Shown here piece after piece: positions 14,660 to 19,508 of a stretch of DNA of 64,000 bases (the stretch's first letter is position 1; each line of letters opens with the position of its first letter). A program made the translations under genes and the position numbers. The stretch is from an uncultured Piscirickettsiaceae bacterium (lineage in GTDB: Bacteria; Pseudomonadota; Gammaproteobacteria; GCF-002020875): assembly GCA_964551545.1 (NCBI GenBank), contig CAZKCT010000005.1, positions 456 to 64,455 on the forward strand, read 5' to 3'. The notes under the pieces were generated by a model. That model worked only from the letters and a program-made list of their open reading frames with translations, searched no databases and had not been told where the DNA came from.

Positions 14660-15124
14660 TTATTGGTTTTTACTCTCAAAGATCTGTAGACCGTCTTTTC
14701 CAAAAGCAATCACATGATATGGGTCAATGCGTGCCCCCTCCATACCGGGTGAACCCATCGGCATACCGGGAACACTCAGCCCCTGGATGTCGGGTTGCTC
14801 CGACAGCATCCGTTTAATGGTTGCCGCAGGAACATGACCCTCCACCAGATAGTTCCCCACCTTTGCGGTATGGCAGGAGCGGAGATTACCAGGAACACCC
14901 AACTGGTTCTTCACCTGCTCCATATTCTGCTGGTCATGGGATTGAACCGTGAACCCACTCTCTTTCAGGTGATCGATCCATGCACTGCAACAGCCGCAGG
15001 TCGGACTTTTATAGACCACAATGTCTGTACTGTCTGCATGAAGTTGAGCCGAAAAGAGGCCGCCTGCCAACATCAACAGACCCAATACCGTACTAACCAT
15101 TTTTCTGATAAACATCCTATTCAC
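14660..15124 (-). CDS. DUF411 (CopG-like) periplasmic copper-binding protein
   Basis: Signal peptide; CGCC (CxCC) motif and ~150 aa size typical of DUF411 proteins found in cop operons; start overlaps copA stop by 8 nt. Confidence 0.65.
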   Translation of the reverse strand: MNRMFIRKMVSTVLGLLMLAGGLFSAQLHADSTDIVVYKSPTCGCCSAWIDHLKESGFTVQSHDQQNMEQVKNQLGVPGNLRSCHTAKVGNYLVEGHVPAATIKRMLSEQPDIQGLSVPGMPMGSPGMEGARIDPYHVIAFGKDGLQIFESKNQ

Positions 15125-17411
15125 TCCCTAATTGAATCCGTTTCATCCGAAGAGCATTACTGACCACCGTTACCGAGCTGAGGCTCATGGCTGTTGCCGC
15201 AACAACAGGGCTCAACAATACCCCAAACCATGGATACAGCACACCTGCCGCAACAGGAATACCAATGGTATTGTAGGCAAATGCCCCTACGAGATTCTGA
15301 CGTATATTTCTCATGGTTGCTCTTGAGAGCAGTATGGCATTCAGCACGCCTTGCAGCTCTCCGCGCATCAACACAATGTCGGCAGACTCAATTGCGATGT
15401 CGGTTCCAGTACCGATCGCCAACCCAACATCTGCTTGAGTCAGGGCTGGTGCATCGTTGATACCATCACCCACCATCAACACCTTTTTTCCGGCTGATTG
15501 CAATCGGTTAATCTGTTCAATCTTGTCTGCAGGCAGCAGCCCTGAATAAAATTGACGAATGCCCAACCGGGTTGAGACCGATTCAGCCGCGCCATGCTGA
15601 TCACCCGTCAACATCACCACCTCCAACCCATGCTGATGGAGCTGATCCACAACCTGTCTGGCCTCTCTCTTCAATGGATCGGCAATTGCCATCAATCCAC
15701 AGAGCATGTCATCAATGGCAACATAGATCGGAGTCATACCCAATTCAGACCACGCCTGAATAATCTCCCGGTCTCCTTCACAGGAGATACTGTTCAATAT
15801 CATCATGGCACGGTTACCCACCACGACCTGACATCCATCGATCTCTGCGGAGGCACCACATCCGGTTTCACTGACAAAAGCGGTGGATTCAAGCAGCGTA
15901 ATCCCTGCCTCATTTGCACGATGAATCATCGCCGTGGCCAGTGGATGCCCGGAATATTGTTCCAGAGATGCAACCAGCTGCAGTAGCCGTCTCTCATCCA
16001 CTGCTGCCATGATCTCTATGGAGACCAGCTCCGGTTTGCCTTCCGTCAACGTGCCGGTCTTGTCAAAGACAACCGTCGTCACCGCGCCAGACTGCTGCAA
16101 CGCCTCTCCATTACGGATCAGTATACCCATTCCTGCGGCCCTGCCCACGGCAACCATAATCGACATCGGAGTCGCCAACCCCAGCGCACAAGGGCAGGCA
16201 ATCACCAATACCGTCATTGCTGTAACCATTGCATAACTGAGCTGGGGAGATGGCCCGTAGTTGTACCAGAGCAGAAAACTGAGGGCTGCCACCAGCACGA
16301 CGGCTGGTACAAACCATGCTGCAACACGGTCTACCAGACGACCAATCTCGGGCTTGCTGCTCTGTGCCTTGCGCACCAGATCAATGATACGGGCCAGCAC
16401 AGTCTCCTGGCCGATACTGGTGGTTCTCATCAACAGACTACCCTGCCCATTGATGGTTCCCCCCACCATCTCAACACCACGCTGCTTGAAAACCGGCATT
16501 GGTTCTCCAGTGAGCATTGACTCATCCACATAGGATTCCCCTTCAATGACTACACCATCCAGTGGAATGCGATCTCCCGGACGGATTCTCAAGGTCTCAT
16601 CAAGACCGATCTGATCCAGAGAAAGCTCTATCTCCACACCGTTACGAATCACACAGGCCCGGTCTGGCTGGAGTCCTATCAATTGCTTGATTGCGGCACT
16701 ACTCTTGCCCCGGGCCCGCATCTCCAGCGCAGACCCCAGTGAGACCAGAGCCACAATGATGACTGCCGCCTCAAAATAGACATGGCGCGCCAATACCGGA
16801 ACCCAGTCAGGAAAGAGCACAACCATTGTCGAATAGAGCCAGGCCGTACCAGTACCCAGCGCAATGAGGGTATCCATATTACCTCTGCGATTGCGCAGCG
16901 CACGCCACGCACCCGTGAAGAAGTGACCACCTACCCCCACAAGCACCAGCAGGGTCACCATGCTGACCCCCAGCCAGAGCAGTGTTCCCGTCCCAATGGG
17001 GGGCAACCATCCCCCCATACCGCTGACAAATAGTGTTGCACCGACGGTACCCGCAGAGACCGCTTGCCTCAGTTTCTGTTTGTAGGCTCTCTCCTCACCC
17101 TCCTCTTTGCTGCGTTCATCTGCCAATGAATGCAGTATGGCGGCATTGAACCCGGCCCCCTTGACCGCATCGATCAACTGCTGCGCTTCAGGCTCTCCTT
17201 CAACTACAGCAATACGTTCTCCCAGATTGACCACCGCTGATGTGACACCGGACACCTTCTGTAGCGCCTCTTCCACGGCAGAGACACAGCCTGCACAGGC
17301 CATACCGGAGATAGAGAGCCGAATCTTAGCCACTGCGTCCACTCCAGCGTCGGTAGATTTCATCTGACCAATGGTTCTGTATCCAGGCCAGGATGGCGTG
17401 AATTTCGGCAT
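15117..17411 (-). CDS. copA: Copper-translocating P1B-type ATPase
   Basis: N-terminal HMA domain GMACAGC, transmembrane CPC motif (ACPCALG), DKTGTLT phosphorylation site, GDGINDAP hinge; start may be the downstream Met at ~17363. Confidence 0.9.
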   Translation of the reverse strand: MPKFTPSWPGYRTIGQMKSTDAGVDAVAKIRLSISGMACAGCVSAVEEALQKVSGVTSAVVNLGERIAVVEGEPEAQQLIDAVKGAGFNAAILHSLADERSKEEGEERAYKQKLRQAVSAGTVGATLFVSGMGGWLPPIGTGTLLWLGVSMVTLLVLVGVGGHFFTGAWRALRNRRGNMDTLIALGTGTAWLYSTMVVLFPDWVPVLARHVYFEAAVIIVALVSLGSALEMRARGKSSAAIKQLIGLQPDRACVIRNGVEIELSLDQIGLDETLRIRPGDRIPLDGVVIEGESYVDESMLTGEPMPVFKQRGVEMVGGTINGQGSLLMRTTSIGQETVLARIIDLVRKAQSSKPEIGRLVDRVAAWFVPAVVLVAALSFLLWYNYGPSPQLSYAMVTAMTVLVIACPCALGLATPMSIMVAVGRAAGMGILIRNGEALQQSGAVTTVVFDKTGTLTEGKPELVSIEIMAAVDERRLLQLVASLEQYSGHPLATAMIHRANEAGITLLESTAFVSETGCGASAEIDGCQVVVGNRAMMILNSISCEGDREIIQAWSELGMTPIYVAIDDMLCGLMAIADPLKREARQVVDQLHQHGLEVVMLTGDQHGAAESVSTRLGIRQFYSGLLPADKIEQINRLQSAGKKVLMVGDGINDAPALTQADVGLAIGTGTDIAIESADIVLMRGELQGVLNAILLSRATMRNIRQNLVGAFAYNTIGIPVAAGVLYPWFGVLLSPVVAATAMSLSSVTVVSNALRMKRIQLGSE

Positions 17412-17802
17412 CGGTTAACAGCTTCTCAAACGGTGGCATCTGCCCACCCAACGGAACGCCACCTTGCTTGATGGTCTTGATCAGCAGTGGCAACGGATGG
17501 TGCCAGGCATGTGCCGTACCATTGAGTGGCGGTGGTGGATAGCGCCCGTTTGCATCAGCCTCTCGCCAGTTGGGAGTAGCTGCGGCATCAACACCATGAC
17601 AACCGGCGCAGTTGGCCTGATACAGTGGTTCTCCCTGTGCCACCTGCTGAGAGCTGTACCAGCGCCCCGTTTCTACATCCTGTGTGATGCTATTGCCAAT
17701 TTGCATCAAGTCTACATGCTTTCCAACAGAGAGCATCTGAACGACCAATGCACCAATCGCCAGCAATAGTAGCAGCACTCCTCCTAAAACCATCTTATTC
17801 AT
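17326..17802 (-). CDS. Membrane-anchored monoheme c-type cytochrome (paralog of 61514-61966)
   Basis: N-terminal TM helix, single CAGCH heme site, conserved PPPPLNGTAHAWHHP segment shared with the paralog; 3' end overlaps copA start region. Confidence 0.7.
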   Translation of the reverse strand: MNKMVLGGVLLLLLAIGALVVQMLSVGKHVDLMQIGNSITQDVETGRWYSSQQVAQGEPLYQANCAGCHGVDAAATPNWREADANGRYPPPPLNGTAHAWHHPLPLLIKTIKQGGVPLGGQMPPFEKLLTDAEIHAILAWIQNHWSDEIYRRWSGRSG

Positions 17803-17816
17803 CCCGCTTCACTCCA

Positions 17817-18635: not shown

Positions 18636-18638
18636 CTG

Positions 18639-19064
18639 TTACTGTTTTACCTGAATCGTAACCATCGGTGAGACCAGATTCTCAAATGGCGTATGCTCCT
18701 CATCGGCAACCACTAACTGCAATGTATGGCGACCAGGATTCAGTTCCAATACCGTTTTCATCTCACCCTCTATCAGACGCAGATGCTTCCTGGACGGCTG
18801 CATCGGCTCATCTACCGTTGCATCAACCGCCTGATCAATCAACAGGTGAAAGTGGCCGGAATCATGTTTATCCACACCAGCTGGCTTGATCTTCACCCCT
18901 TTTGCCTGGAAGGTAACGGTCACCGGGCTGCGGACTACTGCACCCTGCTGCGGTGAGACAATCTCGATATTTTGCCCTTTGTCGTAATCACCATGTGCAA
19001 AAACAGCACTGCCAAACAGCAGTCCAATCATGAATTGTGGTCGTAGAACAGCGCCTCTCTTCAT
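18639..19064 (-). CDS. Secreted DUF4399-like protein
   Basis: Signal peptide; GHFHLLID motif that I recall as typical of DUF4399. Confidence 0.4.
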   Translation of the reverse strand: MKRGAVLRPQFMIGLLFGSAVFAHGDYDKGQNIEIVSPQQGAVVRSPVTVTFQAKGVKIKPAGVDKHDSGHFHLLIDQAVDATVDEPMQPSRKHLRLIEGEMKTVLELNPGRHTLQLVVADEEHTPFENLVSPMVTIQVKQ

Positions 19065-19139
19065 ATTTCACTCCTCTTGCAGATTGCTGGCAGTCATACT
19101 AAACCTTACACACTCGCAGCTACAAAGTTCCAGACGTCT

Positions 19140-19508
19140 CTACTTTTTCTGTAGTGCGACCAGCTCCTTGAGTGAAGCATCGATACTGATCATCAACCCC
19201 TCCATCCGTTTCATATGAGCATGTTTCTCTCCCATCATTTGGTGCATTGACTGAGGATTCATCCCCTGACCATACTGATTACCCATCATCATTGGCATCA
19301 TCTGTCGATTCATCATAGGCATCCCCTGACCACCCCTTATCTGTTGAATCATTTGTGGATTCATCATTGGGTATTGCCCTGATGTCGCTGGCATCATTGC
19401 TTGCGAGCCATTCACGACGGATCCACTCCCGTCACTACCATTCGCCAATACAGGGAGAGACAGCCCCAAAGAGATTACTGTAACCACCATCTTTCTTGAG
19501 AATTTCAT
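19140..19508 (-). CDS. Met/Gln/Pro-rich periplasmic protein, putative Cu(I)-binding
   Basis: Signal peptide then two ~20-aa GQGM-initiated repeats extremely rich in Met (MPMMNRQMMPMMMG; MNPQSMHQMM) plus HAHM; strong RBS AAGGAG; first gene of the operon. Confidence 0.6.
   Translation of the reverse strand: MKFSRKMVVTVISLGLSLPVLANGSDGSGSVVNGSQAMMPATSGQYPMMNPQMIQQIRGGQGMPMMNRQMMPMMMGNQYGQGMNPQSMHQMMGEKHAHMKRMEGLMISIDASLKELVALQKK

Follow-up and report, generated by a model that had tools for sequence, protein, structure and literature searches.

The stretch of DNA analysed here, 64,000 nucleotides from contig CAZKCT010000005.1 of an uncultured Piscirickettsiaceae bacterium (referred to throughout as the window), carries on its minus strand, between 14660 and 19508, a compact set of seven genes in which a Cu(I)-exporting ATPase (CopA) and a DUF411 protein (CopG) are accompanied by three predicted c-type cytochromes. 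One of these cytochromes is homologous to CopJ of plasmid pMOL30, and the other two belong to a second family that recurs beside Cu(I) pumps. We read the region as a chromosomal copper-stress, that is detoxification, locus of the CopF-CopG-CopJ type; for this explanation taken as a whole, with a relay of electrons through the cytochromes included, we put the chances at about even. The seven genes are as follows.

14660..15124, minus strand: CopG (DUF411), with a signal peptide and the motifs CGCC and MPMGSPGME; PF04214, 93.2 bits against a cut-off of 27.
15117..17363, minus strand: CopA, Cu(I)-exporting P1B-1 ATPase with one N-terminal HMA (heavy-metal-associated) domain; the longest reading frame starts at 17411, public gene callers use 17363.
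17326..17802, minus strand: CopJ-like cytochrome c, cytC, with CAGCH, H-x-W-H-H, MP and an N-terminal anchor helix; assigned as Pfam cytochrome c and by homology to CopJ.
17817..18215, minus strand: cytochrome c, cytB, with CAQCH and a cleavable signal peptide; Pfam assignment, public callers take a 114-aa start.
18219..18635, minus strand: monohaem cytochrome c, cytA, with CARCH and an N-terminal anchor helix; PF00034 and PF13442, with a lipobox in orthologues.
18639..19064, minus strand: DUF4399 protein, predicted to be a secreted beta-sandwich; PF14347, 83.9 bits against a cut-off of 28, full-length.
19140..19508, minus strand: Met-rich secreted protein of 122 aa with a signal peptide, repeated M-x-x-M and MPMM runs.

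The operon layout and products that an earlier note had proposed for this DNA hold up: all seven open reading frames (ORFs) are found in the ORF list of the window where that note had placed them, and the Pfam and NCBIfam searches agree with the assignments, the Met-rich protein being the only product with no match in either. Its reading of the region as a copper locus is likewise borne out by the combination of a Cu(I) pump, CopG and a CopJ homologue. Counted from the Met-rich end, the intergenic distances are 75, 3, 3 and 14 bp, followed by two overlaps, and a hairpin/terminator scan of the unit lists no strong internal terminator. As read from their sequences, the accessory products all carry an N-terminal export signal or anchor helix. 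We infer that the seven genes make up a single transcript, induced by copper in the host organism.

Judged by its motifs, the ATPase is a Cu(I) pump of the P1B-1 subfamily: CPC, YN-x4-P, M-x-x-SS and an N-terminal CAGC are all present, the phosphorylation site reads DKTGT, the N-terminal HMA domain scores 60.2 bits with PF00403, and the score with the subfamily model TIGR01511 is 607.4 bits, against an NCBIfam cut-off of 397. With the equivalog model of Escherichia coli CopA (PRK10671) the score is 834, below the cut-off of 1316. The context of the gene, with CopZ-like and CopG proteins, a sensor system and no oxidase genes, favours the detoxifying CopA1 clade over CopA2/CcoI.

The DUF411 product aligns with the solved structure 6WIS (E = 9e-31, 111 residues aligned), and its CxCC motif and MP-x-GSPGME methionines are in register. 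6WIS is given as CopG in a review (PMC7558416), where CopG is also described as helping resistance anaerobically, with oxidation of Cu(I) as its proposed activity, and where CopG linked to copA is already on record. The likeness of the window protein to this CopG consists of the CxCC motif, the cluster methionines and the periplasmic location; a Cu4 cluster is predicted for it. Two further papers have CopG interconverting Cu(I) and Cu(II) in aid of Cus export (PMC8872213; PMC10924375). The passages on CopG that we consulted name no electron partner for it.

By alignment, cytC is a homologue of pMOL30 CopJ (33% identity over 147 aa, E = 2e-25), and in an alignment of 19 CopJ-like sequences, cytC included, CxxCHG, P-x-PP, H-x-W-H-H and MP fall in columns that are at least 90% conserved. 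Genes of this type adjoin or overlap DUF411 genes in beta- and alphaproteobacteria (loci L063, L077, L081, L086 and L041); on Roseobacter plasmids the overlapping gene is that of a multicopper oxidase. One Arcobacter plasmid has a CopJ-like cytochrome in the company of DUF411, SHOCT, CopB, an ATPase, a multicopper oxidase and a two-component system. In all, 306 plasmids carry CopJ-like sequences; the searchable literature yielded no biochemical role for CopJ.

The tandem cytochromes cytA and cytB are paralogues (52% identity over 82 aa). Like cytC, each has a single CxxCH and scores above the gathering threshold of PF00034 or PF13442, which places all three among the class I cytochromes c, with haem attachment predicted. 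CxxCH, HH-x-D and HHW-x-FGDMP are invariant in the alignment of the cytA/B family; the candidate distal Met ligand is M110 of GDMP, also invariant, and the MP pair of the CopJ-like family is conserved as well. With the AlphaFold2 model of cytA (pLDDT 93), Foldseek returned only generic class I cytochromes (query TM-scores of at most 0.53), and a profile search of the PDB with the cytochromes returned only generic domains and no functional lead. The NCBIfam models of established respiratory families (CcoP, c550, c551, cL/MoxG, PedF, c6 and QcrC) give the three cytochromes 16-38 bits against cut-offs of 118-447, the ccoP model in particular 28-32 bits against 180.

A profile search of the whole library recognized about 207 clusters at 50% identity with E ≤ 1e-30, and the cytA/B family is thus a small one. 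It has at least 578 matches in species-representative genomes, is spread over Gamma-, Beta-, Alpha- and Zetaproteobacteria, Nitrospirota, Chloroflexota and Actinomycetota, and is represented by cytA-like sequences on 163 plasmids; we found no description of it in the searchable literature. We surveyed the 80 best-scoring genome loci of these matches, annotating the neighbouring genes by phmmer with the window proteins as queries. A CopA-type ATPase lies near the cytA/B gene in 34 of the 80 loci if a distance of 10 kb is allowed, in 28 within 2 kb and in 15 within 300 bp, whereas a pump would be expected by chance in about 1% of random 20 kb windows, a rough estimate that takes 1-3 pumps per genome of several Mb. 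All the Cu(I) motifs are found in 33 of the 36 ATPases that neighbour cytA/B genes. Other copper-locus genes are also seen in these loci (DUF411 in 14, CopJ-like in 14, DUF4399 in 3). The earlier note had said that its copper reading of the cytochromes would fall if they belonged to an established respiratory family unrelated to Cu and had no synteny with copA/DUF411 elsewhere. What is seen is the reverse: every NCBIfam equivalog cut-off is missed widely, no established respiratory family matches, and the synteny is widely conserved in other genomes.

Two observations on the family stand apart from these counts. At locus L044 of Thauera mechernichensis (9574-12670) a cytA-like gene is flanked on one side by cusA and the gene of a small His-rich membrane protein, and on the other by a Cu ATPase gene; in the product of the latter, the N-terminal HMA domain is replaced by the Cys-rich motifs CGM...C..C and CPMHPE...CPKCGM. 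Domain fusions of cytA/B among the library proteins (P0282 and P0210 included) were considered as a lead to copper and set aside, the partners (Kelch beta-propeller, N-terminal zinc ribbons, TPR) being uninformative.

The window has matches among metagenome scaffolds, and the genomes nearest to it are those of uncultured Piscirickettsiaceae and SUP05-type Gammaproteobacteria. At loci L005-L007, L011 and L012 the first tandem cytochrome is 66-73% identical to that of the window, and the gene order is kept as HMA-RR-HK-(Met-rich)-DUF4399-cyt-cyt-cyt-CopA, where RR and HK denote a response regulator and a histidine kinase; because the same order recurs in relatives, the arrangement of the seven genes is not due to chance. 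At L005-L007 and L012 the DUF411 gene is divergent and lies upstream. The same four loci have a membrane-anchored thioredoxin of the TlpA/redoxin type (WCAPC) between the CopJ-like gene and copA (10622-11176 in L012, 9260-9763 in L005-L007), which the window lacks. They also have an extra Met-rich protein of 138-140 aa, encoded between the DUF411 and HMA genes (4701-5117 in L012, about 3614-4122 in L005-L007), with a C-terminal CVACH and a sub-threshold match to Cytochrome C'; it would be the fourth haem protein of these relatives, and a search for it in the window found it absent.

The Met-rich protein of the window itself belongs to no Pfam or NCBIfam family, and has weak homologues (44-72 bits) in the same position in relatives. 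In the alignment of the DUF4399 protein G-H-x-H, H113 and H124 are invariant; its AlphaFold2 model has a pLDDT of 85.5 and a fold search gave generic FN3/Ig matches only. Both proteins probably bind or buffer metal in the periplasm.

Upstream of the seven genes lie a sensor system, a CopZ-like gene and two copies of an operator-like box.

19661..19676, minus strand: operator-like direct repeat GTTACATTCGGTTACA, an exact pattern match that lies ahead of the Met-rich gene, in the divergent promoter region.
20300..21715, minus strand: sensor histidine kinase with HAMP, HisKA and HATPase domains and a Met/His-rich periplasmic segment, MQPPPGMERMHEQMHQRMEPP.
21719..22444, minus strand: OmpR-family response regulator, syntenic in relatives.
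22450..22650, minus strand: CopZ-like heavy-metal-associated protein of 66 aa with MCGGC; PF00403, 48.4 bits against a cut-off of 24.8.
22944..22959, minus strand: second copy of the operator-like box, GTTACATTCGCTTACA, with one mismatch, about 290 bp upstream of the HMA-RR-HK genes.

The position of the CopZ-like gene is conserved in relatives. Allowing one mismatch at most, the box is matched at these two sites only in the 64 kb, both in the copper locus, and the likeness between the two regions reaches over about 55 bp (TGTTACATTCG[GC]TTACAAAAAA...CAGACA...TTACAT); the block at 19661-19676 is also conserved in an alignment with relatives L006 and L012. The shared box suggests that the HMA-RR-HK unit and the seven-gene unit belong to one regulon.

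The most economical reading of this gene set would be a periplasmic electron-transfer route, in which both the flow of electrons and its direction are presumed. Periplasmic metal would be bound or buffered by the Met-rich protein and the His-decorated beta-sandwich of DUF4399; CopG, as a thioredoxin-fold holder of a Cu4 cluster, would change the oxidation state of copper; and the three c-type cytochromes would act as an electron wire linking periplasmic copper and CopG with the respiratory cytochrome pool. The wire would be made of one CopJ-like, membrane-anchored cytochrome and two HH/HHW-FGDMP paralogues, one tethered and one soluble. Cu(I) would most likely be converted to Cu(II), the cytochromes handing the electrons on to either a terminal oxidase or an enzyme of denitrification, and the route could serve as an O2-independent substitute for a multicopper oxidase. 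The OmpR-type two-component system would control the HMA-RR-HK and seven-gene units via the shared GTTACA-N4-GTTACA box.

In its boldest form the proposal is that the three cytochromes and CopG constitute an O2-independent periplasmic cuprous oxidase: CopG, the invariant histidines of the HH/HHW-FGDMP cytochromes, or both, would oxidise the Cu(I) that comes from CopA, the electrons would enter the respiratory chain, and in several phyla the cytA/B family would serve Cu(I) pumps as their dedicated partner. We advance this form tentatively, as something possible rather than probable. SUP05-type bacteria are associated with oxygen-poor waters. Oxidation of Cu(I) without O2 is favoured here because it is what has been proposed for CopG, because no multicopper oxidase gene is seen in the annotated parts of the window, and because the closest genomes are of the SUP05 type.

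Several observations pull the other way. The direction from Cu(I) to Cu(II), favoured as it is, amounts to a guess. Members of the cytA/B family are found outside copper loci too: in 40 of the 80 loci neither CopA nor DUF411 occurs in the fetched stretch; at the distant loci L008 (8001-8399), L009 and L010 (both 8001-8360), of which two belong to a Chloroflexota genome, a leuC-type (Aconitase) and a leuD-type (Aconitase_C/LeuD) gene enclose a cytA-family gene, with no copper genes nearby; and the SUP05 loci L013 and L016 have a CopJ-like and two tandem cytA/B genes, with a two-component system in L016, and no Cu ATPase in the fetched stretch. The percentages drawn from the 80 loci are not an unbiased estimate, because the loci are the best-scoring ones and several come from related genera. 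The invariant histidines of cytA/B might make contacts with haem propionates or partner proteins instead of binding metal, and there are distant DUF4399 proteins with no link to copper. Finally, we file the regulator and kinase only as an OmpR-family system, predicted as such from their profile scores, which miss the curated heavy-metal (CusRS/CopRS/CzcRS) thresholds: the regulator has 263.8 bits with the OmpR model (cut-off 331) and 144 with TIGR01387 (cut-off 279.2), both below, and the kinase has 145.6 bits with the heavy-metal sensor model TIGR01386 (cut-off 292.55), the EnvZ model scoring higher and also below its cut-off.

Electrons might also run the opposite way, the cytochromes carrying them from the respiratory chain to Cu(II), which would thereby become Cu(I), or to the cluster and cysteines of CopG, which would be kept reduced, such that copper stays in the form suited to Cu(I)-specific binders and exporters. 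The interconversion of Cu(I) and Cu(II) for Cus export, ascribed to CopG in the two papers mentioned above (PMC8872213; PMC10924375), would agree with this, as would the TlpA/redoxin-type thiol reductase that relatives have between the CopJ-like gene and copA, and the Thauera cytA-like gene between cusA and the ATPase. We nevertheless consider it fairly unlikely: neither a CusCBA nor a CopB route for export across the outer membrane is seen in the annotated parts of the window, the greater toxicity in the periplasm is that of Cu(I) (PMC4600104), and the activity proposed for CopG in PMC7558416 is oxidation.

The cytochromes could also be devoid of copper chemistry, and serve as copper-tolerant stand-ins or extra copies that sustain respiration while copper harms the assembly of c-type cytochromes. 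According to PMC4600104, this assembly is among the key points at which copper strikes in the periplasm; genes for it (ccm) are found about 2.6 kb away in the window, and Roseobacter copper plasmids have ccmI and DsbD beside the cluster. A stand-in should resemble the cytochrome that it replaces, yet no curated family was matched; moreover, both cytochrome families have invariant extra His motifs that are not seen in the ordinary cytochromes of the PDB alignment, and the direct gene partners of CopJ-like genes are CopG or a multicopper oxidase rather than respiratory complexes. For these reasons we hold such a role to be unlikely.

Very unlikely, in our judgement, is a locus for copper supply, with a pump like CopA2/CcoI feeding respiratory cuproenzymes and the cytochromes as ordinary parts of that branch. 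P1B ATPases of the CopA2 type do metallate cytochrome oxidase (PMC8872213), and the cytochromes give weak matches to CcoP-like models; these matches remain at the 28-32 bits quoted above against a cut-off of 180, however, and no oxidase, ccoGHIS or nos genes are among the annotated ORFs of the window, and there is the N-terminal HMA domain of the pump, its company of CopZ-like, CopG and sensor proteins, and the occurrence of homologous modules in plasmid resistance islands. That the cytochrome genes are a separate, copper-independent unit lying by accident among copper genes is hardly credible, even with internal promoters in the pMOL30 cluster, where copF and copGJ have separate primary transcription start sites (PMC7563307), and with half of the sampled cytA/B loci showing no copper gene nearby, given gaps of 3-14 bp or overlaps with no strong internal terminator listed, a gene order conserved in relatives, and a pump adjacency of 35-43% against the roughly estimated 1%.

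Three further features lie in or beside the copper locus.

14430..14461, minus strand: terminator-like hairpin of 13 pairs with a T-run, about 200 bp past copG and abutting the start of rlmD.
19748..20059, plus strand: conserved 103-aa protein with C-terminal PAPCCNKPPR, divergent from the seven-gene unit.
20071..20292, plus strand: small membrane protein with a SHOCT match; PF09851, 25.7 bits, slightly below the cut-off of 27.

The terminator that had been put at 14428-14462 is present as far as the hairpin and the T-run are concerned; a role for it at the end of the operon is plausible and not clean, because it stops 4 nt ahead of the ATG of rlmD. Between 14425 and 14461 there is no space past the hairpin for an rlmD promoter or a clear ribosome-binding site. 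A promoter scan gave the same counts as shuffled sequence and was not used, and a scan of 14000-23300 with Rfam matched no family. The 103-aa protein has no Pfam or NCBIfam family, just a faint HMA match (E = 0.27); its homologues occupy the same position at L005-L007 and L012, with weaker ones in other cytochrome loci. Many loci have a SHOCT ORF next to copA or DUF411, and on the Arcobacter plasmid, too, one adjoins DUF411.

The locus is chromosomal and is flanked by housekeeping genes: rlmD, pdxJ, recO, era, rnc, lepB, lepA, a degP-like gene, rpoE/rseAB, pheT and thrS. Over 18000-20000, which covers the Met-rich and DUF4399 genes and the promoter region, the G+C content is 48%, compared to 52-57% on either side, and no genes of mobile elements were noticed in the vicinity. 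The cytochrome maturation genes ccmA, ccmB, ccmC(+ccmD), ccmE and ccmF lie on the plus strand at 6859-12075, and end 2.6 kb from the copper operon. Of these, ccmC and ccmD form a single ORF of 420 aa (8328-9590), and ccmF is followed by a zinc-type dehydrogenase gene, with no ccmG/H/I.

These results touch on the question of how, in the absence of oxygen, Cu(I) is removed from the bacterial periplasm. Together with its relatives, the locus offers specific candidates for the partner of CopG, namely the CopJ-like cytochromes and a second small family found beside Cu(I) pumps. Where cop clusters had only the vague annotation of cytochrome c, there are now defined proteins on which to experiment, in hosts that can be cultured. 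If true, the electron-transfer reading would account for copper tolerance in oxygen-poor habitats and for the frequency of haem-protein and cytochrome-maturation genes in plasmid copper-resistance islands; as a cuprous oxidase, the system would wire copper detoxification to respiration. If the cytochromes were mere stand-ins, the locus would be an ordinary cop operon.

These interpretations can be set against the systems already described. The closest is the cop cluster of pMOL30 from Cupriavidus metallidurans CH34, where copF (P-type ATPase), copG (DUF411) and copJ (cytochrome c) are consecutive and co-directional, the same three kinds of gene as in the window. The pMOL30 cluster is almost completely induced by copper (PMC7563307), and copFGJ is listed as one unit defined by its transcription start site (PMC9045368). 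The order differs (copJ-like, copA, copG in the window; copF, copG, copJ in pMOL30), and the window locus, which is chromosomal, goes beyond copFGJ with two cytochromes of the second family, DUF4399 and the Met-rich protein; among the annotated genes in its vicinity, none codes for a multicopper oxidase, CopB, CopC, CopD or the cupredoxin CopI. pMOL30 CopT was considered as a relative of cytA and cytC and rejected as unrelated.

A second precedent is copLABMG(CD)F of Xanthomonas and Stenotrophomonas, in which, as in the window, a cytochrome c gene stands beside CopG with a P-type ATPase near. In the Xanthomonas copLABMGF system CopM, a protein with a cytochrome c domain, is needed for full resistance (PMC10924375), and copM adjoins copG in Pseudomonas putida (PMC3056050). 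As a relative of the window cytochromes CopM was discarded, since just 35-42 residues around CxxCH align (E = 3e-4 and 0.003); by this measure it is an analogous recruitment from another family. Plasmid pDSHI03 of Dinoroseobacter shibae has both kinds of cytochrome: a member of the cytA family (45% identity) and a CopJ-like cytochrome, whose gene overlaps that of a multicopper oxidase, occur there with an HMA protein and a Cu ATPase. Roseobacter clusters of this type are plasmid-borne, have a multicopper oxidase and CueR where the window has CopG and a two-component system, and add two further cytochromes and DsbA. The multicopper oxidases CueO and PcoA have the same proposed job, oxidation of Cu(I) in the periplasm, whereas protein family and electron acceptor are wholly different; multicopper oxidases require O2 (PMC7558416).

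In the light of these systems the gene combination cannot be called undescribed, as the earlier note had done, because a pump, CopG and a cytochrome c form a known module, with copF-copG-copJ of pMOL30 and the CopM/CopG pairs of Xanthomonas and P. putida as instances. For the same reason haem proteins beside Cu exporters, which it had considered unusual, have precedents in cop clusters, and the CopZ-type partner that it had found wanting is encoded in the same locus, at 22450-22650. What looks new is the second cytochrome family, cytA/B, with its broad link to Cu(I) pumps, and the arrangement of three cytochromes with DUF4399 and a shared regulatory box; relative to the precedents for CopG, the window locus adds three cytochromes that are candidates for its electron partners.

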